Shown: one piece after another, positions 25,828-42,320 of the stretch | Layout: each line of letters opens with the position of its first letter | Position numbering within the stretch: the stretch's first letter is position 1 | Assembly: GCF_050920415.1 (NCBI RefSeq) | Contig: NZ_CP169309.1 | Source: Escherichia coli | GTDB taxonomy: Bacteria > Pseudomonadota > Gammaproteobacteria > Enterobacterales > Enterobacteriaceae | Direction: 5' to 3' (one strand) | DNA length: 64,000 bases | The notes under the pieces: model-generated | Databases searched by the model: none | Told to the model about the DNA's origin: nothing | What the model saw: only the letters and a program-made list of their open reading frames with translations | Position numbers and translations under genes: made by a program

Positions 25828-28836
<3,009 letters not shown>

Positions 28837-32827: not shown

Positions 32828-33790
32828 TTATTGCACAAAGCGTGAGGTAACGTACTGGCTGTAATCCTTCGCCACAGCGGGAACTTTGCCCTGATCTTTC
32901 AAAAACTGGGCGGTATCGATGATCGCTTTGTTCACCGGTCCAGTCAGTTCTGCCGTTTGTTGCTGCGGCGTCAGATAGGTGTTTCCTTTAACCAGCCCCG
33001 GAACGTCACCTTCCGGCACACCGCTTAAACGCGCCAGTTTGCTGATGTTTTCCGGCTGTTTCAGCCACGCGTCTGGGTTAGCAATGTACGGTTGCTGAGC
33101 ATCGATGGCGCTTTTAGCGAACGCTTTCACTACCTCAGGATGTTTCTCGGCAAAATCTTTGCGCACTACCCAAACATCCAGCGTTGGCGCGCCCCACTGC
33201 CCGACCTGTTCAGAATCGGTCAGCACCTTGCCGTCTTTTTCCAGTGCGTTAACCGCCGGTGCCCAGACATAAGCACCATCAATGTCTCCCCGCTGCCAGG
33301 CGGCGATAATCGCAGGCGGCTGCAGGTTCACAATCTCCACTTGCCCGGGTTTAATGCCCCAGTGTTTCAGCGCCGCCAGCAAGCTGTAATGCGTGGTGGA
33401 GATAAACGGTACGGCAATGCGTTTGCCAATCAGATCTTCCGGTTTGCTGATGGTTTTCTTCACCACCAGCGCTTCGGAGTTACCCAGTTTTGACGCCAGC
33501 AAGAAGACTTCAATCGGCACCTGTTGGCTGGCTGCAACCGCTAATGGGCTGGAACCGAGGTTGCCGATTTGCACATCGCCTGAAGCCAGCGCCCGCACGA
33601 TGCTGGCTCCGCTGTCAAACTTGCGCCAGTCCACCGTCGCCCCGCTCTCTTTAGCAAAGGTGTTATCAGCCTGAGCTACTTTCGCCGGTTCAGCGGAGGT
33701 TTGATAGGCCACGGTGACGTTCACCGCCTGTGCCTGAAAAGCGATGAATGCCAGTGCGGCAAGAAGTGTGTTACGCGATGAAATTGCCAT
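32828..33790 (-). CDS. tauA: Taurine-binding periplasmic protein TauA (320 aa)
   Basis: Signal peptide; matches TauA; first gene of tauABCD. Confidence 0.93.
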   Translation of the reverse strand: MAISSRNTLLAALAFIAFQAQAVNVTVAYQTSAEPAKVAQADNTFAKESGATVDWRKFDSGASIVRALASGDVQIGNLGSSPLAVAASQQVPIEVFLLASKLGNSEALVVKKTISKPEDLIGKRIAVPFISTTHYSLLAALKHWGIKPGQVEIVNLQPPAIIAAWQRGDIDGAYVWAPAVNALEKDGKVLTDSEQVGQWGAPTLDVWVVRKDFAEKHPEVVKAFAKSAIDAQQPYIANPDAWLKQPENISKLARLSGVPEGDVPGLVKGNTYLTPQQQTAELTGPVNKAIIDTAQFLKDQGKVPAVAKDYSQYVTSRFVQ

Positions 33791-34092
33791 GATTGTCTGC
33801 TCCCCTGTCTTGTTATGGGAGCAGTATTTCGTTGCTGGTCAGTTTGATAAAGGAATTAAAACGTCTTGTTAAGAACAAAGCGTTTTTAGAAAAAAACTGG
33901 CAATGGTTAGCGAGTTTACGCATTTTGCAGCTTGGGCGAATGTAGCATGCCGATTCACAAACCAGATCAGATGTTCGCGCTCCGGCAAATTATTGCCATT
34001 TTGTTACATCCATTCCATATCTGTCGCTGGTTGATTGCCAGCGACGCGCCGTGATGCATGATAGGAGAATGAGATAATAAGAGAAGAAAAGT

Positions 34093-34722
34093 ATGATTAG
34101 GGTTGTGCTGGTGGATGACCATGTGGTGGTGCGCTCTGGCTTCGCACAGTTACTCTCTCTGGAAGACGATCTGGAGGTCATTGGTCAGTACAGTTGTGCC
34201 GCGCAGGCATGGTCGGCATTAACTCATAATGACGTTAATGTTGCCGTCATTGATATCGCCATGCCGGACGAAAATGGCCTCAGTCTGCTTAAGCGCCTGC
34301 GTGCACAAAAACCGCAATTTCGCGCCATTATTCTTAGCATTTATGACGCGCCCACCTTTGTGCAAAGCGCGCTGGATGCCGGTGCCAGCGGCTATTTGAC
34401 CAAACGCTGTGGGCCGGAAGAGTTAGTACAGGCGGTGCGCTCGGTCGGGCTGGGCGGGCATTATCTCTGTGCCGATGCAATTCGGGCTTTACGCGGCGGC
34501 GGGCAACCTGCCCAGGCGCTGGAAATTCTCACCCCACGAGAACGTGAAGTGTTTGATTTACTGGTCAAAGGAGACAGCGTTAAAGAGATCGCCTTTAAAC
34601 TCGAACTCAGTCATAAAACGGTACATGTGCATCGCGCCAATGTGCTGGGAAAACTGAACTGCCATAGCACCATTGAACTGGTACATTTTGCGCTCGACCA
34701 CCATCTGCTGGCGGGGCATTAA
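34093..34722 (+). CDS. NarL/UhpA-family response regulator (209 aa), UhpA paralog
   Basis: Receiver domain (VVLVDDH...D) plus LuxR-type HTH (SVKEIAFKLELSHKTVHVHRANVLGKL); resembles UhpA but is not identical to it. Confidence 0.85.
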   Translation: MIRVVLVDDHVVVRSGFAQLLSLEDDLEVIGQYSCAAQAWSALTHNDVNVAVIDIAMPDENGLSLLKRLRAQKPQFRAIILSIYDAPTFVQSALDAGASGYLTKRCGPEELVQAVRSVGLGGHYLCADAIRALRGGGQPAQALEILTPREREVFDLLVKGDSVKEIAFKLELSHKTVHVHRANVLGKLNCHSTIELVHFALDHHLLAGH

Positions 34723-36263
34723 TGTCGCGTAACCTTCGTCATTGGGTGATTTCGCTGTTTATTGTGCTGGCCTGGGGAAGCGGCTGGCTGATGTTGTGGA
34801 CGCTCAGCTTTTATCTGACCAATAACGGTCAACAGGCAGTGTTATTTCTGCCGCACGGAGTTTACCTCGCTCTTCTTATTTTGCTCTCTCGCCGTTACTG
34901 GCCTGCGTTGGTGCACCCCCCTTTGCTGATGATGTTCTGGCTGCACAGCGAGCAACTGTTGAACGGCTATCTCATGCTGGCAACGCCGGTTATTAGCCTG
35001 CTTCCTGCCATCCTTGCACAAAACGTCTGGCACCGTTTTCCACTTTACTGGCAGCGTCTGACGTTGCTGTTAGCCTCAGTAACAGCAGCTTCATTGCTGA
35101 ATACAGCCATGCTAACCCCTTTTATGTCAGGCCCAATAATGCTGCCCGGTCTGACCTCATTTACCGGCAGCGTATTGTTGACGCCGTTTGTCTATCTCAT
35201 CTTTGAGTTTCTGCGCCAGCAGCATCGCTATCAGCTTCTGAGACTCGATACGCATAATCCCCCCTTGCGAACCTCTTTAATCATCTGGTGTAGCCTATTT
35301 TTTATTATTGGTATCGGCACCCAGATGGTGTTGTCGCCTGAAATCGAACGCCTGCTGCTGATCGTGGTATTTCTACCCAATGTGGTCATGGCCTGGAAAT
35401 TTGGCTGGCAAGGTGGCGTACTCTCGGGGCTTTTGGGCAGCATGATGATCACTATTGCCCGCCAGATTGGCGTGGGCTTTAGTAACCTGGTGGAACTGGA
35501 GATTTTTCTCGCAACCCAGGCATTGCTGGGAATTGGCCTGGGCATTGCCATCAGTCGCCAGCAACATCTGGCGCTAAACCTGCATCATTACCGTCAGCGA
35601 CTGGAGGCAGAACTGGCAGCACGGCGGGCATTGGCTGAAAAGCTGATCCACACCGAGGAAGACACGCGTAAAAGCCTGGCTCGCGAGCTGCACGACGAAA
35701 TCGGTCAGAACATTACCGCCATTCAGATCCAGTCGCAACTGGTGACGCGGGCACGCGATCCGGCGCAAGTTCATTCCGCAGCTAGCCAAATCAACGAACT
35801 CGCCCGCCGCATTCATCTCTCCACCCGCCAGTTGCTGCGCCAGTTGCGGCCACCCGCGCTTGATGAACTGACATTCCGCGAAGCATTACTTCATCTGATT
35901 AATGAATTTGCCTTTAGTGAACGCGGCATTCATTGCCAGTTTACCTATCAACTAACCACCACGCCAGAAAACGAAACGGTTCGCTTTACACTGTATCGGT
36001 TATTGCAGGAGTTACTCAATAACGTCTGTAAACACGCCGAAGCCAGCGAAGTGACGATTATTCTGCGCCAGCAGGGAGAGATATTGCACCTGGAGGTCAG
36101 CGACAACGGTATAGGAATCGCCAGCGGGAAAATGACCGGATTTGGCATTCAGGGGATGCGTGAACGCATCAGTGCCCTGGGCGGCGACTTAACGCTCGAA
36201 AAACATAACGGTACGCGGGTAATTGTTAACCTGCCCACATTTTTGCAACAAATCGCCGGATAA
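34722..36263 (+). CDS. UhpB-like sensor histidine kinase (513 aa): MASE1-type membrane domain plus HisKA_3/HATPase
   Basis: H-box LARELHDEIGQ, G-box DNGIGI, multi-TM N-terminal domain; start overlaps the regulator stop (TAATG). Confidence 0.85.
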   Translation: MSRNLRHWVISLFIVLAWGSGWLMLWTLSFYLTNNGQQAVLFLPHGVYLALLILLSRRYWPALVHPPLLMMFWLHSEQLLNGYLMLATPVISLLPAILAQNVWHRFPLYWQRLTLLLASVTAASLLNTAMLTPFMSGPIMLPGLTSFTGSVLLTPFVYLIFEFLRQQHRYQLLRLDTHNPPLRTSLIIWCSLFFIIGIGTQMVLSPEIERLLLIVVFLPNVVMAWKFGWQGGVLSGLLGSMMITIARQIGVGFSNLVELEIFLATQALLGIGLGIAISRQQHLALNLHHYRQRLEAELAARRALAEKLIHTEEDTRKSLARELHDEIGQNITAIQIQSQLVTRARDPAQVHSAASQINELARRIHLSTRQLLRQLRPPALDELTFREALLHLINEFAFSERGIHCQFTYQLTTTPENETVRFTLYRLLQELLNNVCKHAEASEVTIILRQQGEILHLEVSDNGIGIASGKMTGFGIQGMRERISALGGDLTLEKHNGTRVIVNLPTFLQQIAG

Positions 36264-36347
36264 CCAGGAAAAAGTCTTAGGCATCCCGGATTTTCTCTCA
36301 TCCTCTTTCACTTTCATTTTCATATAGTCAGCAACATGGAGACGACC

Positions 36348-37652
36348 ATGCACGCGCGTTCAGCGAGAGAGATTAATCAATGCTACCGGACATTACGTCC
36401 GCGATTGCTGATGTGCATGATTATTGGCTACGCCGCATTTTATCTGACGCGAAAAAGCGTGAATTACGTCCTTCCGGCGCTGCAAACCGACCTCGGACTG
36501 GATAAAGGCGACATTGGCCTGCTGGGTTCGCTGTTTTATCTCAGCTACGGATTGTCGAAATTTACCGCCGGACTGTGGCATGACAGCCACGGACAACGCG
36601 GTTTTATGGGCGTCGGCTTGTTCGCCACTGGGCTATTGAACGTGGTGTTTGCCTTTGGCGAATCACTTACGCTTCTGCTTGTGGTCTGGACACTGAACGG
36701 ATTTTTTCAAGGCTGGGGGTGGCCACCGTGTGCCCGCTTACTGACCCATTGGTACTCCCGTAATGAACGTGGTTTCTGGTGGGGCTGCTGGAATATGTCG
36801 ATCAACATTGGCGGAGCGATTATTCCGCTGATTAGCGCCTTTGCCGCCCACTGGTGGGGCTGGCAGGCCGCGATGCTGACACCGGGGATTATCAGCATGG
36901 CATTAGGGATCTGGTTAACGCTACAGCTTAAAGGCACCCCCCAGGAAGAGGGATTACCGACGGTGGGTCAGTGGCGTCACGATCCGCTGGAATTACGTCA
37001 GGAACAACAAAGTCCGCCGATGGGGCTGTGGCAAATGTTGCGCACCACAATGCTGCAAAATCCGATGATCTGGCTGCTGGGTGTCTCTTATGTACTGGTT
37101 TATGTGATCCGGATTGCGTTAAACGACTGGGGCAATATCTGGCTGACGGAAAGCCACGGCGTCAACCTACTCAGCGCCAACGCCACGGTAATGCTGTTTG
37201 AAGTGGGCGGCTTACTCGGCGCGTTATTTGCCGGATGGGGTTCGGATTTGCTGTTTAGCGGGCAGCGAGCCCCCATGATTTTGCTGTTTACCCTGGGGTT
37301 GATGGTTTCGGTCGCTGCACTCTGGTTGGCACCGGTTCATCACTATGCCCTTCTGGCTGTGTGCTTTTTTACTGTGGGCTTTTTTGTCTTTGGCCCGCAA
37401 ATGCTGATTGGACTTGCGGCAGTGGAATGTGGACACAAAGCTGCGGCGGGTTCAATCACCGGATTTCTCGGTCTGTTCGCCTATCTCGGTGCGGCGCTGG
37501 CAGGCTGGCCATTGTCGCTGGTTATCGAACGCTACGGCTGGTCAGGAATGTTCAGTTTACTCTCGGTCGCCGCAGTACTTATGGGTTTACTGCTGATGCC
37601 GTTACTGATGGCGGGCATCACCACCACTCACGCTCGAAGGATAAAACAATGA
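36348..37652 (+). CDS. UhpC-like MFS sugar-phosphate sensor/transporter (about 434 aa)
   Basis: Strong similarity to UhpC/UhpT-family motifs (FFQGWGWPPCARLLTHWYSRNERG; FFVFGPQMLIGLAAVECGHKAAAG); start chosen at the second ATG, which has a GGAG RBS; the ORF track starts at 36336. Confidence 0.85.
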   Translation: MHARSAREINQCYRTLRPRLLMCMIIGYAAFYLTRKSVNYVLPALQTDLGLDKGDIGLLGSLFYLSYGLSKFTAGLWHDSHGQRGFMGVGLFATGLLNVVFAFGESLTLLLVVWTLNGFFQGWGWPPCARLLTHWYSRNERGFWWGCWNMSINIGGAIIPLISAFAAHWWGWQAAMLTPGIISMALGIWLTLQLKGTPQEEGLPTVGQWRHDPLELRQEQQSPPMGLWQMLRTTMLQNPMIWLLGVSYVLVYVIRIALNDWGNIWLTESHGVNLLSANATVMLFEVGGLLGALFAGWGSDLLFSGQRAPMILLFTLGLMVSVAALWLAPVHHYALLAVCFFTVGFFVFGPQMLIGLAAVECGHKAAAGSITGFLGLFAYLGAALAGWPLSLVIERYGWSGMFSLLSVAAVLMGLLLMPLLMAGITTTHARRIKQ

Positions 37653-38680
37653 AAATGCCCCTTACCTCTACTCTGATTGCTTCTGCCGTTGCGCTGGCAA
37701 CCTTAACGGGTGCCGCACAAGCGAAAGGTCGACTGGTGGTCTATTGCAGCGCCACCAATGAAATGTGTGAGACCGAAACCAAAGCGTTTGGCGAGAAATA
37801 TGATGTGAAAACCTCGTTTATCCGCAACGGCTCCGGTAGCACCCTGGCAAAAGTCGATGCTGAAAAGAAAAACCCACAGGCTGACGTCTGGTACGGCGGC
37901 ACCTTAGACCCGCAGTCGCAGGCCGGCGAGATGGGTCTGTTACAGGCATATAAATCGCCTAACCTTGAACAGATCATGGAAAAATTCCGCGATCCGGCAA
38001 AAGTGAAAGGAAACCTTTCCTCCGCCGTTTATGTGGGGATCCTCGGGTTTGGCGTCAACACAGAGCGTCTGAAAGAGAAAAACCTGCCTGTGCCGAAGTG
38101 CTGGAAAGATCTCACCAAACCTGAATATAAAGGCGAAATTCAGATTGCCGATCCACAAAGTTCCGGTACCGCCTACACCGCGCTGGCTACCTTTGCGCAG
38201 CTGTGGGGGGAAGATCAGGCCTTTGATTATCTAAAACAACTTAACACCAACGTCTCCCAGTACACCAAATCAGGCATTGCCCCGGCACGTAACGCCGCCC
38301 GCGGCGAAACGGCGATTGGTATTGGTTTCCTGCATGACTACTCGCTGGAAAAAGAACAGGGCGCACCACTGGAGTTGATTTCCCCGTGTGAAGGTACGGG
38401 CTACGAAATTGGCGGCGTCAGCATTCTGAAAGGCGCGCGCAACCTCGACAACGCCAAACTGTTTGTGGACTGGGTATTATCAAAAGAAGCTCAGGAACTG
38501 GCGTGGAAGAAAGGGAAGTCTTATCAGATCCTGACCAATACCACCGCCGAAACGTCGCCAAATTCGCTGAAGCTCGACGACCTGAAATTAATCAACTACG
38601 ACATGGATAAATACGGTTCCACGGATGTTCGTAAGGCATTGATTAATAAATGGGTCAGCGAAGTGAAGATGGGTAAATAA
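37649..38680 (+). CDS. Periplasmic substrate-binding protein of an Afu/Fbp-type ABC transporter (AfuA-like; about 343 aa)
   Basis: Signal peptide MKMPLTSTLIASAVALATLTGAAQA; Fbp/Afu-family SBP size and composition; ATG overlaps the uhpC-like stop (ATGA); the long upstream extension in the ORF track overlaps the previous gene and is rejected. Confidence 0.8.
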   Translation: MKMPLTSTLIASAVALATLTGAAQAKGRLVVYCSATNEMCETETKAFGEKYDVKTSFIRNGSGSTLAKVDAEKKNPQADVWYGGTLDPQSQAGEMGLLQAYKSPNLEQIMEKFRDPAKVKGNLSSAVYVGILGFGVNTERLKEKNLPVPKCWKDLTKPEYKGEIQIADPQSSGTAYTALATFAQLWGEDQAFDYLKQLNTNVSQYTKSGIAPARNAARGETAIGIGFLHDYSLEKEQGAPLELISPCEGTGYEIGGVSILKGARNLDNAKLFVDWVLSKEAQELAWKKGKSYQILTNTTAETSPNSLKLDDLKLINYDMDKYGSTDVRKALINKWVSEVKMGK

Positions 38681-38748
38681 ACCCGCATTGCGTGCATTTG
38701 CCGGGCGCAGCACAAACGCCTGCCCCGGCCAACCATACCGGAACTGCT

Positions 38749-40827
38749 ATGTCACAGACACTTGCACTCCATCCCGTGAAAAAGCGGGATGCGATTTTCC
38801 TTTGGGTTTTGCTGGGCTGGCTGGCATTTATCCTGTTGCCGAGCTGGAGTCTCGATTATGGTCTGCTGGAGTCCACGAGTGATGAGATCCTCGAGGCGTA
38901 CAGCTGGTCGCATTTTAATATCAGCTGGCTGTGGTATTTACTCCCGAGTTTGCTGCTGGTTCGCCCGTTTAATGAGGCCAAACGCGAGCAGCGTAGCCGT
39001 CATTATTTTGATGCCGGCTGGGCATTGCTTTGTTTAGCGTTTATGGTCATCAGTGCCACCATCGTTGGCCGCGGTCTAGGCTACGCCGCCATCGTGCTGT
39101 TTATCGAATTAAGCGCGATAATGACGCTGGCCTTAACCCGCCTCGAATGGCTGGGTGGCGACCGCTTTGTGATCGGCTCGCTGATTGCGATTGTGGCGCT
39201 GATTGGCATTTTTATCGTCTGGCCGAGCATCGCCATTTTTATCCCGATGTTCACCAACGACGCGGGAGGGTTCGCCCCACTGGCGTTTATGAATGTGCTC
39301 TCGCAGGCACATATTGTTCAGGTGATCGTCAACTCCATCGTCTTATCGATAGCGGTGGGTATTGGCTGTACTTTCTTCGGTCTGGTGCTGGCGATATATA
39401 CCACGCGCATCGCCAAACGCAGCGCCGTAATCGGCCGCATCTTTTCCATTCTGCCAATTGTCACGCCACCGTTTGTGGTCGGCTTAGGCGTTACGCTCAT
39501 GATGGGGCGCTCCGGCTACATAACGGAATTTATGGTGGAGTGGTTTGGGCTGACCAACACCAACTGGCTGTATGGTTTTACCGGGATCTGGCTGGCACAG
39601 GTCCTGGCATTCACGCCAATGGCTTTTATGATCCTTGATGGGGCCATTAAAACCATTCATCCCTCGCTGGAAGAGGCCTCCTACACCCTGCGTGCCAGCC
39701 GCTGGCAAACCTTTAACGGCGTGTTTGTGCCGTTGCTAAAGCCCGCGCTCGCCAATGCCTTTTTAATCGTCGTGGTACAGTCACTGGCTGATTTCAGTAA
39801 CCCGCTGGTGCTTGGCGGCAACTTCGACGTACTGGCGACGCAAATTTACTTCTACATTACCGGCTCGCAGCTGGATTATCAGGCCGCCAGCACCCTTGGC
39901 GCTTTCCTGCTGCTGTTCTCGCTACTGGTGTTCTGCGTCCAGTATATGTGGATTGGTAAACGCTCTTACGTCACGGTTTCCGGAAAGTCCTACCGCGGCG
40001 ATGTCCAGCCACTACCGGTCACCCTGGTGTGGAGCGTGGTCGCCATACTTGCGATATGGATTGTCTTTAACGCCCTGCTCTATGGCAGCATTTTCTACGG
40101 CAGCTTCACCGTGAACTGGGGCGTAGACTACACCCTAACGCTGGATAACTTTATCAAGTTATTTGGTCAGGGGATGAGCGACGGCGCGTGGCCTTCACTG
40201 TTAGATACCTTGCTCTACGCCGGGATTGCCGCACCCATTACCGCTATCTTTGGCCTGCTCATCGCCTGGGTGGTGGTGCGCCAACAATTCAAAGGCAAAA
40301 AGACCATCGAGTTCACCACCATGTTGTGCTTTGCCGTACCGGGTACGGTGGCGGGCGTCTCGTATATTCTCGCCTTTAACAGCGCTCCGGTTTATCTCAC
40401 CGGAACGGCGGCAATTGTGATTATCTCGATGGTGATGCGTAACGTTCCGGTGGGTATTCGCGCCGGGATTGCGGGTCTGGGGCAGATCGACAAATCGCTG
40501 GATGAAGCCTCACTTAGCCTGCGTGCGGGTTCCCTGCGAACCATTACGCACATTTTACTGCCGTTGTTACGCCCAGCTATTCTCTCGGCCCTGATTTACA
40601 GCTTTGTGCGGGCTATCACGACGGTCAGCGCCATCGTCTTTCTCGTCACGCCGGACACACGCGTGGCAACCGCCTACATCCTTAACCGCGTAGAAGACGG
40701 CGAATATGGCGTAGCCATCGCCTACGGTTCGATTCTGATCGTGGTGATGCTGGCGATTATTTTCCTCTTTGACTGGCTGATCGGTGAAGCACGTATTTCC
40801 CGTTCTAAAGCCAAAAACCAGGCGTAA
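38749..40827 (+). CDS. Fused two-domain ABC permease (AfuB/FbpB-like, about 692 aa)
   Basis: Two tandem permease domains each with an EAA-like loop; size typical of FbpB/AfuB/ThiP. Confidence 0.85.
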
Positions 40828-40838
40828 TGGAGCGCACT

Positions 40839-41885
40839 ATGAGTCAGAAAAATTTTGTGGAACTGCGCAACGTCACTAAACGATTCGGCAGTAATACGGT
40901 TATCGACAATATCAATCTCACCATCCCACAAGGGCAAATGGTGACGCTGCTCGGTCCTTCCGGATGCGGCAAAACCACCATTCTGCGTCTGGTTGCCGGG
41001 CTGGAAAAACCGAGCGAAGGGCAAATTTTTATAGATGGCGAAGATGTCACGCATCGTTCCATTCAGCAACGCGATATCTGCATGGTGTTTCAGTCATACG
41101 CTCTGTTCCCACATATGTCGCTGGGCGAAAACGTTGGCTATGGGCTGAAAATGCTTGGCGTGTCGCGTAGTGAAGTGAAGCAGCGGGTGAAAGATGCGCT
41201 AGCAATGGTGGATCTGGAAGGATTCGAAGACCGCTATGTCGACCAGATTTCCGGTGGTCAGCAACAGCGTGTGGCTCTGGCCCGTGCGTTGATCCTTAAG
41301 CCTAAAGTGCTGCTGTTTGATGAGCCGTTAAGTAACCTCGATGCCAACCTGCGTCGCAGCATGCGCGATAAAATCCGCGAGCTGCAAAAGCAATTTAACA
41401 TCACTTCGCTCTATGTGACTCACGATCAAAGTGAAGCTTTCGCGGTGTCCGACACCGTGTTGGTGATGAATAAAGGTCACATCATGCAGATTGGTTCACC
41501 GCAGGATCTCTATCGTCAGCCCGCCTCCCGCTTTATGGCAAGTTTTATGGGCGACGCCAACCTGTTCCCGGCGAACTTTAGCGAAGAGTATGTCGATATC
41601 TACGGTTATCGCCTGCCGCGCGCGGCGCATTTCCCGGCGCAAGGTAGCGGCACCGTCGGCGTTCGCCCGGAAGCCATCACCTTAAGCAATCACGGCGAAG
41701 AGAGTCAGCGTTGTGTTATTCGCCATGTCGCCTACATGGGGCCGCAGTACGAAGTGACCGTAGAATGGCATGGTCAGGAGATTTTATTGCAAGTCAACGC
41801 CACCCGTTTACAGCCCGATATTGGTGAGCACTATTACCTCGAAATCCATCCTTACGGGATGTTTGTTTTAGCGGATGCGGCATAA
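40839..41885 (+). CDS. ABC transporter ATPase (AfuC/FbpC-like, about 348 aa)
   Basis: Walker [25 protein letters not shown] signature, Walker B LLFDEP, C-terminal TOBE-like domain; GGAG RBS before this ATG (alternative ATG at 40827). Confidence 0.9.
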
Positions 41886-41897
41886 AAATAGCAGATA

Positions 41898-41926
41898 AAC
41901 GGTCCCAACCTGTCTTGAGGGACCGT
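41898..41926 (+). terminator. Putative terminator after the ABC transporter operon
   Basis: AACGGTCCC-loop-GGGACCGTT hairpin 13 nt after the stop; weak T tract. Confidence 0.4.
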
Positions 41927-41967
41927 TCACCTGTTTAAACGTCGGACAACAATTATTCTCCGGCGTT

Positions 41968-42020
41968 ATATACTATAGGGGGGTATGCATTGACATATAG
42001 CATACCCCCCTATAGTATAT
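41968..42020. promoter_or_regulatory. frmRAB operator-promoter: 20-bp perfect inverted repeat with G6/C6 tracts flanking a TTGACA -35
   Basis: ATATACTATAGGGGGGTATG - 13 bp - CATACCCCCCTATAGTATAT; TTGACA at 41990-41995 and TAGTAT -10 in the right arm; matches the RcnR/FrmR-type TACT-G6-N-AGTA operator class. Confidence 0.75.
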
Positions 42021-42044
42021 TGCGTGCAGATGATGAGGTGCGAA

Positions 42045-42320
42045 ATGCCCAGTACTCCGGAAGAGAAGAAAAAGGTCCTTACTCGAGTTCGTCGTATTCG
42101 GGGGCAAATTGATGCTCTGGAACGGTCGCTGGAGGGTGATGCCGAATGCCGTGCCATACTCCAACAGATCGCTGCCGTTCGGGGCGCGGCTAACGGGCTG
42201 ATGGCAGAAGTGCTTGAAAGCCATATCCGGGAAACGTTTGACCGAAATGACTGCTACAGCCGCGAAGTCAGCCAATCCGTTGACGACACTATTGAACTGG
42301 TTCGTGCCTATCTTAAATAG
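42045..42320 (+). CDS. frmR: Formaldehyde-responsive repressor FrmR (91 aa)
   Basis: Translation [30 protein letters not shown]... (CsoR/RcnR family). Confidence 0.93.

Follow-up and report, generated by a model that had tools for sequence, protein, structure and literature searches.

A Uhp-like sensor trio linked to the AfuABC sugar-phosphate transporter in Escherichia coli: a variant allele of O-island 20 with a conserved predicted operator

Introduction

Two described systems of enteric bacteria are close to the locus examined here, a block of six genes lying between tauA and frmR in a 64-kb stretch of the chromosome of Escherichia coli NZ_CP169309.1 (the window; all positions are those of this stretch unless another sequence is named). 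The first is O-island 20 (OI-20) of enterohaemorrhagic E. coli (EHEC), which carries the ABC transporter genes afuABC beside the "fucose-sensing" FusKR system (PMC4546632). AfuABC imports glucose-6-P, fructose-6-P and sedoheptulose-7-P, and not iron (Sit et al. 2015, PMC4546632); binding and transport have been established for the orthologues of Actinobacillus pleuropneumoniae and Citrobacter rodentium (PMC4546632), the family-defining residues are H205, D206 and E229 (Sit et al., PMC4546632), and a C. rodentium afuA mutant shows poor colonisation and transmission (PMC4546632).

The second is the UhpABC–UhpT system, in which a response regulator, a histidine kinase and a sensor of the major facilitator superfamily (MFS) are encoded in the order A-B-C and the output is the antiporter UhpT. 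UhpB-type MASE1 kinases have no periplasmic domain, and sensing requires UhpC.

An earlier note, made from the letters of the window alone, had described the block as a UhpABC-like trio followed on the same strand by an Afu-type substrate-binding protein (SBP), a fused permease and an ATPase. Annotation, profile models and the match of the SBP to AfuA all bear out this description. From the comparisons reported below, we see about an even chance that FusK–FusR–Z0461 arose as, and chiefly remains, a Uhp-type three-component system for sensing sugar phosphates outside the cell, whose direct target across the order would be the z0461–afuABC promoter, reached through the sequence C(C/T)AGGAA-N3-TTCCT(G/A)G. 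On the same reading, the fucose phenotypes of EHEC and those of its locus of enterocyte effacement (LEE) would be a lineage-specific add-on or an indirect metabolic effect, and the locus would be an ancestral tauA-adjacent enterobacterial module, since lost from most E. coli, and EHEC would not have acquired it recently.

Results

The tauA–frmR block is an allele of O-island 20

Between tauA and frmR, six collinear open reading frames (ORFs) occupy the plus strand. They agree with the RefSeq annotation of NZ_CP169399 (E. coli MFDS1022581, from food, Korea), a genome with 100% identity over the region, where they are named as response regulator, MASE1 sensor kinase, "UhpC", ABC SBP, ABC permease and "FbpC". 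Against O157 the six proteins show 97.6, 94.5, 99.3, 98.5, 97.1 and 99.4% identity, respectively, and the cassette as a whole 94.6% nucleotide identity, with the same gene order at the same tauA–frmR site. In the EDL933 table, WP_000621918.1 corresponds to Z0463 and WP_000084161.1 to Z0459 (afuB) (supplement, PMC6199705), whereas Z0462 is fusK and Z0461 is listed as UhpC/"fucose transporter" (PMC6199705). Because of these same-site identities and the Z-number table, the response regulator is assigned as FusR, the kinase as FusK and the MFS protein as Z0461. The cassette is thus best identified as a variant allele of the known OI-20 island, fusR-fusK-z0461-afuA-afuB-afuC, and the locus as one already described. 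It shares with OI-20 of EHEC O157:H7 and C. rodentium all six genes (Z0463, Z0462, Z0461 and Z0460–Z0458) and their order; it differs from that of EHEC O157 in that the window allele is rare and its host is not annotated as O157. In published RNA-seq data, afuB rises together with Z0461–Z0463 in bovine gut contents.

The block, its genes and its flanks are as follows.

33929..41952, no strand: inserted block, 8024 bp (blastn of the flanks against an empty-site strain and K-12)
34093..34722, plus strand: response regulator, NarL/GerE family, FusR (Z0463) orthologue and UhpA paralogue (97.6% to O157)
34722..36263, plus strand: histidine kinase of MASE1 type, FusK (Z0462) orthologue and UhpB paralogue (94.5% to O157)
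36336..37652, likely start 36348, plus strand: UhpC-type MFS protein, organophosphate:phosphate antiporter family, Z0461 orthologue (99.3% to O157)
37649..38680, plus strand: AfuA, periplasmic sugar-phosphate SBP (match to PDB 4R72-75)
38749..40827, plus strand: AfuB, fused two-domain ABC permease, 692 aa (97.1% to O157 WP_000084161.1, Z0459 afuB)
40839..41885, plus strand: AfuC, ABC ATPase, 348 aa, annotated "fbpC, ferric" (NF008513 score 698.5; 99.4% to O157)
41890..41935, plus strand: terminator-like hairpin 3' of afuC, within the inserted block (minimum free energy −19.4 kcal/mol, z = −2.46 against shuffles)
32828..33790, minus strand: tauA, flank, divergent from the cassette (annotation)
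42045..42320, plus strand: frmR, flank (annotation)

The genes had been described as joined throughout by overlapping or near-overlapping stop and start codons. This holds for response regulator and kinase (1-nt overlap, TAATG), for MFS protein and SBP, whose 4-nt overlap (ATGA) couples z0461 and afuA translationally, and for permease and ATPase (11 nt apart), but not for the kinase–MFS gap of 72–84 nt, depending on the MFS start, or for the SBP–permease gap of 68 nt. The true SBP gene is 37649–38680 and not a 439-aa ORF starting at 37361; the long alternative ORFs 37361–38680 and 38692–40827 overstate SBP and permease. A hairpin in the afuA–afuB gap, considered as a differential-expression element, was not significant (z = −1.27). 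No mobility genes were found within the inserted block, and neither uhpT nor the LEE was found anywhere in the 64-kb window.

The transporter genes encode AfuABC

For identification of the SBP, comparison was made with structures of known ligand specificity. The protein aligns over residues 25–343 with A. pleuropneumoniae AfuA (PDB 4R72-75) at E = 3e-170, and with 8X1A at 2.5e-173, whereas the ferric binders FbpA/HitA are matched only at about E = 1e-10. Its H229, D230 and E253 correspond to AfuA H205, D206 and E229 and are invariant in 14 genera. The SBP is accordingly named AfuA here, and it is assigned as other than a ferric-iron binder because the match at E = 3e-170 comes with the sugar-binding triad intact. 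The earlier note had pointed to reports that Afu-type transporters import sugar phosphates rather than iron, as is borne out by Sit et al. 2015 (PMC4546632); the SBP groups with the sugar-phosphate-binding AfuA and not with ferric or thiamine binders. The permease consists of two BPD_transp-type halves by NCBIfam models, and the ATPase falls in the NCBIfam model that bears the name FbpC. The names "ferric" (fbpC) and "UhpC" are misleading for this locus.

Full-length SBP alignment, the same H/D/E triad, and a fused permease with its ATPase are all shared with AfuABC of A. pleuropneumoniae, which differs in working without a sensor trio. The afuB'/afuC remnant of K-12 (CP4-6 region) is also related, with 93.7% protein identity for AfuC and 85% DNA identity over the afuB 3' end and afuC, but it is truncated by IS1, lies at another locus among IS elements, and lacks the SBP, the sensor trio and the operator described below. 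This remnant (NZ_CP012868, 4362504–4363909) and 45 plasmid places in E. coli make up a second afu lineage, in which only the afuB 3' end and afuC are present.

The sensor trio is paralogous to UhpABC

NCBIfam and Pfam models and direct comparison with K-12 proteins were used for the three regulatory genes, and the UhpA-, UhpB- and UhpC-like assignments of the earlier note held in each case. The best NCBIfam model for the response regulator is UhpA (193.9 bits, below the cut-off of 258); the protein is 47.8% identical to K-12 UhpA, its D54 aligns, and its recognition helix, KTVHVHRAN, is the same as that of UhpA. For the kinase, the best NCBIfam model is UhpB, matched over its full length (369.9, below the cut-off of 408), with 33.3% full-length identity to UhpB and the Pfam domains MASE1, HisKA_3 and HATPase_c. 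The MFS protein scores 588.8 against the UhpC model (of "subfamily" type), above the curated cut-off of 564, and is 53.5% identical to UhpC versus 29% to UhpT; the equivalents of UhpT R46, K82 and R275 are invariant. The gene order, response regulator-kinase-MFS, is the same as uhpA-uhpB-uhpC. A GGAG followed by ATG at 36348 is conserved across genera and the annotated RefSeq ATG at 36336 is not, for which reason the MFS protein is probably of 434 aa, not 438 aa.

Since identity to UhpA/B/C is 48/33/53% and both the regulator and the kinase fall under the equivalog cut-offs, the trio is classed as a set of Uhp paralogues and not as the Uhp system itself. A true UhpABC with a uhpT gene in the locus, which had been considered beforehand, does not match what was found: the proteins are paralogues, and uhpT occurs in neither the window nor the related loci. 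The canonical uhpABCT is core and located elsewhere, being found in 5415 of the 5426 complete E. coli genomes that made up our census (99.8%), whereas the cassette is accessory (9.5% of genomes). Common to both systems are a GerE-type response regulator with an identical recognition helix, a MASE1/HisKA_3 kinase and a UhpC-type MFS protein in the order A-B-C. The predicted output of the cassette, by contrast, is the ATP-driven ABC importer afuABC and not the antiporter UhpT.

The six genes are inherited together across the Enterobacterales

To follow the linkage of sensor and transporter, 87 loci from more than 40 genera were collected by searches started from AfuA or from the kinase. A scan of one genome per species gave AfuA relatives in 438 species, of which the best 80 loci (84–99% identity, about 35 genera) all carry response regulator, kinase, MFS, SBP, permease and ATPase genes in this order on one strand, wherever the flank is present. 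The same block was reached through AfuA in Pectobacterium, Yersinia enterocolitica, Photorhabdus and Moellerella, and through the kinase in Edwardsiella, Providencia and an Aeromonas. Flanking genes vary from locus to locus, no UhpT homologue was found in the flanks of the 80 best loci, and the MFS–afuA gap is below about 60 nt in most genera.

More distant AfuA relatives (73 and 43% identity, triad kept) are encoded by afuABC alone, without the trio. Because the block recurs with different neighbours, and distant relatives hold afuABC alone, the fusion of sensor and transporter is best described as a stable, inherited and mobile Enterobacterales unit, with AfuABC able to exist without the trio. 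The 73% relative, from a metagenome (3550–5781), is the closest non-Enterobacterales relative sampled; it has a second SBP gene in tandem and no sensor genes upstream. This second SBP may correspond to a paralogue known from Actinobacillus that binds pyridoxal-5-phosphate.

MFS proteins of Erwinia, Pantoea, Brenneria and Yersinia nurmii at first appeared nearer to K-12 UhpC than to the cassette protein. This was rejected as an artefact of tblastn hit selection; on direct alignment, identity to the window MFS protein is 67–70% (Pantoea and Y. nurmii 67%, Rahnella 70%).

A conserved control region separates the kinase and MFS genes

The gap between the kinase and MFS genes of the window contains three elements.

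36264..36280, plus strand: inverted repeat CCAGGAAAAAGTCTTAG immediately 3' of the kinase stop codon; a predicted operator for the response regulator
36296..36303, plus strand: invariant TCTCATCC box (alignment of 21 genera)
36323..36328, plus strand: predicted −10 hexamer TATAGT (TAYAST in 21 genera); the promoter would be of activator type and lacks a −35 match

In the 21 aligned genera, the kinase stop is followed by the inverted repeat, the TCTCATCC box, the TAYAST hexamer, and GGAG then the ATG at 36348. In other genera the repeat is a perfect palindrome, C(C/T)AGGAAT(A/T)ATTCCT(G/A)G; examples are the perfect CCAGGAATAATTCCTGG of Pantoea and the CTAGGAAT(A/T)ATTCCTAG of Rahnella, Pectobacterium and Providencia. 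A strict composite pattern matched 71 of the 80 best loci, on the coding strand only, and with a relaxed search the repeat was found in the 8 remaining loci that hold the junction (79/79 in total) and in 7/7 extra loci. The 64-kb window holds a single copy of the repeat (0.07 expected), and the afuABC loci without the trio hold none. A second operator upstream of the response regulator gene, which might serve autoregulation, was looked for, and none was found in the window at up to 1 mismatch.

Placing TATAGT at −12 to −7 centres the palindrome on −63, with the TCTCATCC box spanning −39 to −32. For comparison with K-12 uhpT, promoter positions were calibrated in this analysis from the CRP box (−103.5), which has been reported at −103 (PMC5352689). 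On this scale, uhpT has TACAAT at −12 to −7 and a dyad whose centre, −64, falls within the stretch attributed to UhpA; CCAGG-N5-CCTGG and TCAGGCCTGA come after this dyad. The predicted promoter of the cassette and that of uhpT both carry half-sites of the CCAGG/CCTGG type in dyads near −64, and both have the form of activator-type promoters. They differ in that the predicted regulated promoter of the cassette precedes the MFS gene, whereas that of uhp follows the sensor gene.

A scan of positions 33700–42100 for consensus sigma-70 promoters and terminators gave nothing above shuffled expectation, and no full promoter at the kinase–MFS junction; this null result fits an activator-dependent promoter but is uninformative alone. 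The geometry is that of a predicted activator-dependent promoter without a consensus −35 element, and the predicted transcript start lies at about the annotated ATG at 36336. Given the overlap of the MFS stop with the start of afuA, a single transcript covering z0461–afuABC is expected from this promoter.

In Raoultella planticola (8415–8691) the kinase and MFS genes are about 275 nt apart, against about 72 nt, with extra sequence after the TCTCATCC box; the predicted promoter may have been interrupted there by an insertion.

Distribution in E. coli and the history of the site

Across the census, 518 of 5426 genomes hold the complete cassette interior, 4818 hold the K-12 filler, and about 90 hold neither. 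The tauA and frmR flanks of the cassette are the same in the window, O157 and these 518 genomes. Alleles with at least 99% identity to that of the window occur in only 2 of the 5426; 93 genomes have alleles of 95–99% identity and 424 have alleles of 90–95% (O157-type). Carriers include O157:H7, O55:H7, O145 and an ST69 O15:H18 strain. Reviews have described FusKR as confined to O157:H7 and as a recent acquisition "possibly from E. faecalis". With the cassette in 518 genomes of several serotypes, the first of these statements is outdated; an origin in E. faecalis was rejected, as the named sources among the best 120 of 306 kinase homologues (all of at least 55% identity) are Enterobacterales or Aeromonas only.

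The order in K-12 is frmR-yaiO-yaiX::IS2-yaiP-ykiC-yaiS-tauA, so that the occupancy of the interval by yaiO–yaiS, stated in the earlier note, is confirmed by the K-12 genome. The note's further suggestion of a replacement hotspot is supported in the form of a three-state junction (cassette, K-12 filler or neither). A synteny comparison placed the cassette at the same tauA–frmR site in O157, yaiO–yaiS there in K-12, and the Citrobacter cassette beside tauABCD. The K-12 filler and the island have nothing in common. In one empty-site strain tauA and frmR are 305 bp apart, with a 75-bp filler resembling repetitive extragenic palindromic (REP) sequences in place of the block; a cassette remnant was rejected for this filler, which has no similarity to the cassette and is an unrelated REP-like 75-mer. 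No compositional sign of foreign origin was seen, the G+C content being 52.9% for the block and 51.3% for the window.

Divergent from tauABCD, the cassette is found in about 30 species of at least 10 other genera, including Citrobacter, Klebsiella, Raoultella, Enterobacter, Leclercia, Huaxiibacter, Silvania and Intestinirhabdus. Among the flanks compared, frmRA was never found downstream of the cassette outside E. coli. Because the same divergent position beside tauABCD recurs in many genera, the tauA-adjacent site looks ancestral in the Enterobacteriaceae, and the absence of the cassette from most E. coli would seem to reflect its loss or replacement.

The tauA-side flank (33501–33928, comprising the tauA 5' end and sequence upstream of it) differs unusually strongly among E. 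coli strains, with 94.4% identity to the empty-site strain and 96% to K-12, compared with 98.7–98.9% on the frmR side, which suggests recombination or an old polymorphism around the junction. Just upstream of frmR, at about 41975–42035, a long near-perfect palindrome (TATATACTATAGGGGGGTATGC...GCATACCCCCCTATAGTATAT) overlaps a strong promoter-like TTGACA-17-TAGTAT and is kept in the empty-site and K-12 strains; it is presumably the FrmR operator.

Other features of the window

Outside the block, the window consists of ordinary chromosomal sequence running from phoB to cynS. At about 54195–55944, a gene for a metallo-hydrolase of the MBL fold and one for a GlxA-family regulator lie between mhpR and lacI, which we take to be adjacent in K-12; if this adjacency holds, the two genes would be another small accessory insertion. 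An intact 995-aa autotransporter is encoded between iprA and hemB (25849–28836, minus strand); its K-12 counterpart is presumably yaiT, a pseudogene disrupted by an IS element. A DUF2773-domain gene with an internal stop (9227–11506, minus strand) is annotated as a pseudogene and adjoins an SF0329-family gene (8775–9194, minus strand).

Discussion

Taken together, the comparisons make it probable, though by no means secure, that the OI-20 block works as one unit, in which a Uhp-type sensor drives the z0461–afuABC operon. Under such a mechanism, weak expression of fusR–fusK with read-through into the MFS gene would supply a Uhp-type three-component sensor. An external hexose or heptose phosphate would be detected, most likely by the MFS protein, which would pass the signal on to the kinase in the manner of UhpC and UhpB. 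Once phosphorylated, the response regulator would bind the palindrome near −63 of the −35-less promoter directly 3' of the kinase gene, and this promoter would drive z0461–afuABC. AfuA would capture glucose-6-P, fructose-6-P or sedoheptulose-7-P in the periplasm, for import by AfuBC with ATP. Of these steps, we infer in particular that the regulator binds the palindrome, that it acts as an activator, and that the signal is a sugar phosphate read through the MFS protein. No paper tying FusKR to a UhpAB mechanism or to regulation of afuABC was found in the literature searched.

This predicted sensing of hexose phosphates is well supported by the comparative data, yet it contradicts the experimental literature, and several points weigh against it. 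Chief among them are the published fucose and repression data. According to secondary accounts, L-fucose triggers autophosphorylation of FusK, FusR acts on z0461, the fuc genes and ler as a repressor and not as an activator, and strains deleted for z0461 grow less well on fucose. The site described for FusR at ler has no obvious resemblance to the palindrome, for which binding, transcription-start or induction results were not found in the literature searched. In addition, the predicted promoter lies upstream of the MFS gene, unlike the arrangement in uhpABC–uhpT, so that the MFS gene takes the "transporter" position and may encode a transporter induced along with AfuABC instead of a sensor. 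Finally, AfuABC of A. pleuropneumoniae works without a trio, and distant afuABC loci have none.

The alternative that survives best, although we hold it to be fairly unlikely, is the published model as a whole, in which FusK senses mucin-released L-fucose, FusR represses the LEE (through ler), z0461 and fuc, Z0461 is a fucose importer, and afuABC is an independent co-resident. It draws on secondary accounts of Pacheco et al. 2012, on a 2026 study in which fucose-dependent LEE repression was lost in a fusKR deletion (PMC12976359), and on the published rise of fusKR and z0461 with fuc genes in bovine rectal contents. Independent co-residence is difficult to reconcile with six genes that were inseparable in 87/87 loci, including those of the plant pathogens Pectobacterium and Brenneria, the insect-associated Photorhabdus, and Aeromonas. 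To our knowledge these four genera are without the LEE, and because the block is intact in them, control of the LEE would not be the ancestral function. The MFS protein, moreover, is a member of the organophosphate:phosphate antiporter family with its phosphate-binding arginines intact, whereas fucose has no phosphate; the ancestral role would thus not be the one given by the fucose account. A conserved predicted operator in activator geometry also stands before z0461–afuABC. If, as for UhpB-type kinases generally, FusK needs its UhpC-type partner, an assay of FusK alone with glucose-6-P would miss the signal. The fucose and sugar-phosphate models are not mutually exclusive; EHEC may have added the LEE and fucose outputs.

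A second alternative, which we regard as quite improbable, takes the MFS protein not as the sensor but as a functional organophosphate:phosphate antiporter, induced along with AfuABC and giving a second route of uptake; the kinase would be signalled in some other way, for example by loaded AfuA, by the transport cycle, or by a membrane or cytoplasmic cue. A predicted regulated promoter upstream of the MFS gene, which is the position of uhpT in the canonical system, would suit such a protein; all transport-critical residues common to UhpT and UhpC are kept, and the UhpC-type proteins of Chlamydia are true glucose-6-P transporters (reference 26 of PMC4546632). The greater similarity to the sensor UhpC (53%) than to UhpT (29%), the score above the curated UhpC cut-off, and the uhpA-uhpB-uhpC order of the genes all speak for a sensor instead. 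The MFS gene was also never lost in 87 loci although AfuABC alone suffices for uptake, and a regulatory role fits this better. Import of ferric iron, thiamine or 2-aminoethylphosphonate, as implied by the name FbpC given to the ATPase by the PGAP annotation and by the best NCBIfam models for SBP, permease and ATPase (phnS2/PhnU2/PhnT2, putative 2-aminoethylphosphonate), is very remote and effectively refuted, the SBP and permease scores being far under their cut-offs (238 versus 392.75 and 248 versus 593), the AfuA match and triad being as given above, with ferric binders trailing far behind, and the C. rodentium orthologue binding and transporting sugar phosphates (Sit et al., PMC4546632).

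FusKR is widely cited as a model of how a pathogen times its virulence by microbiota-released fucose, and is already in use as a therapeutic lever (PMC12976359). If its conserved role is instead to turn on a sugar-phosphate importer, the signal of FusKR, the direction of its regulation and the ecological story built on it would need re-examination. AfuABC, a proven colonisation factor of C. rodentium, would gain a defined regulator and operator, and one would expect this module to operate also in Klebsiella, Citrobacter, Serratia, Yersinia and plant pathogens. The main value of the locus lies in the order-wide linkage of its six genes and in its conserved Uhp-like operator, which together pose a testable challenge to the accepted function of FusKR.

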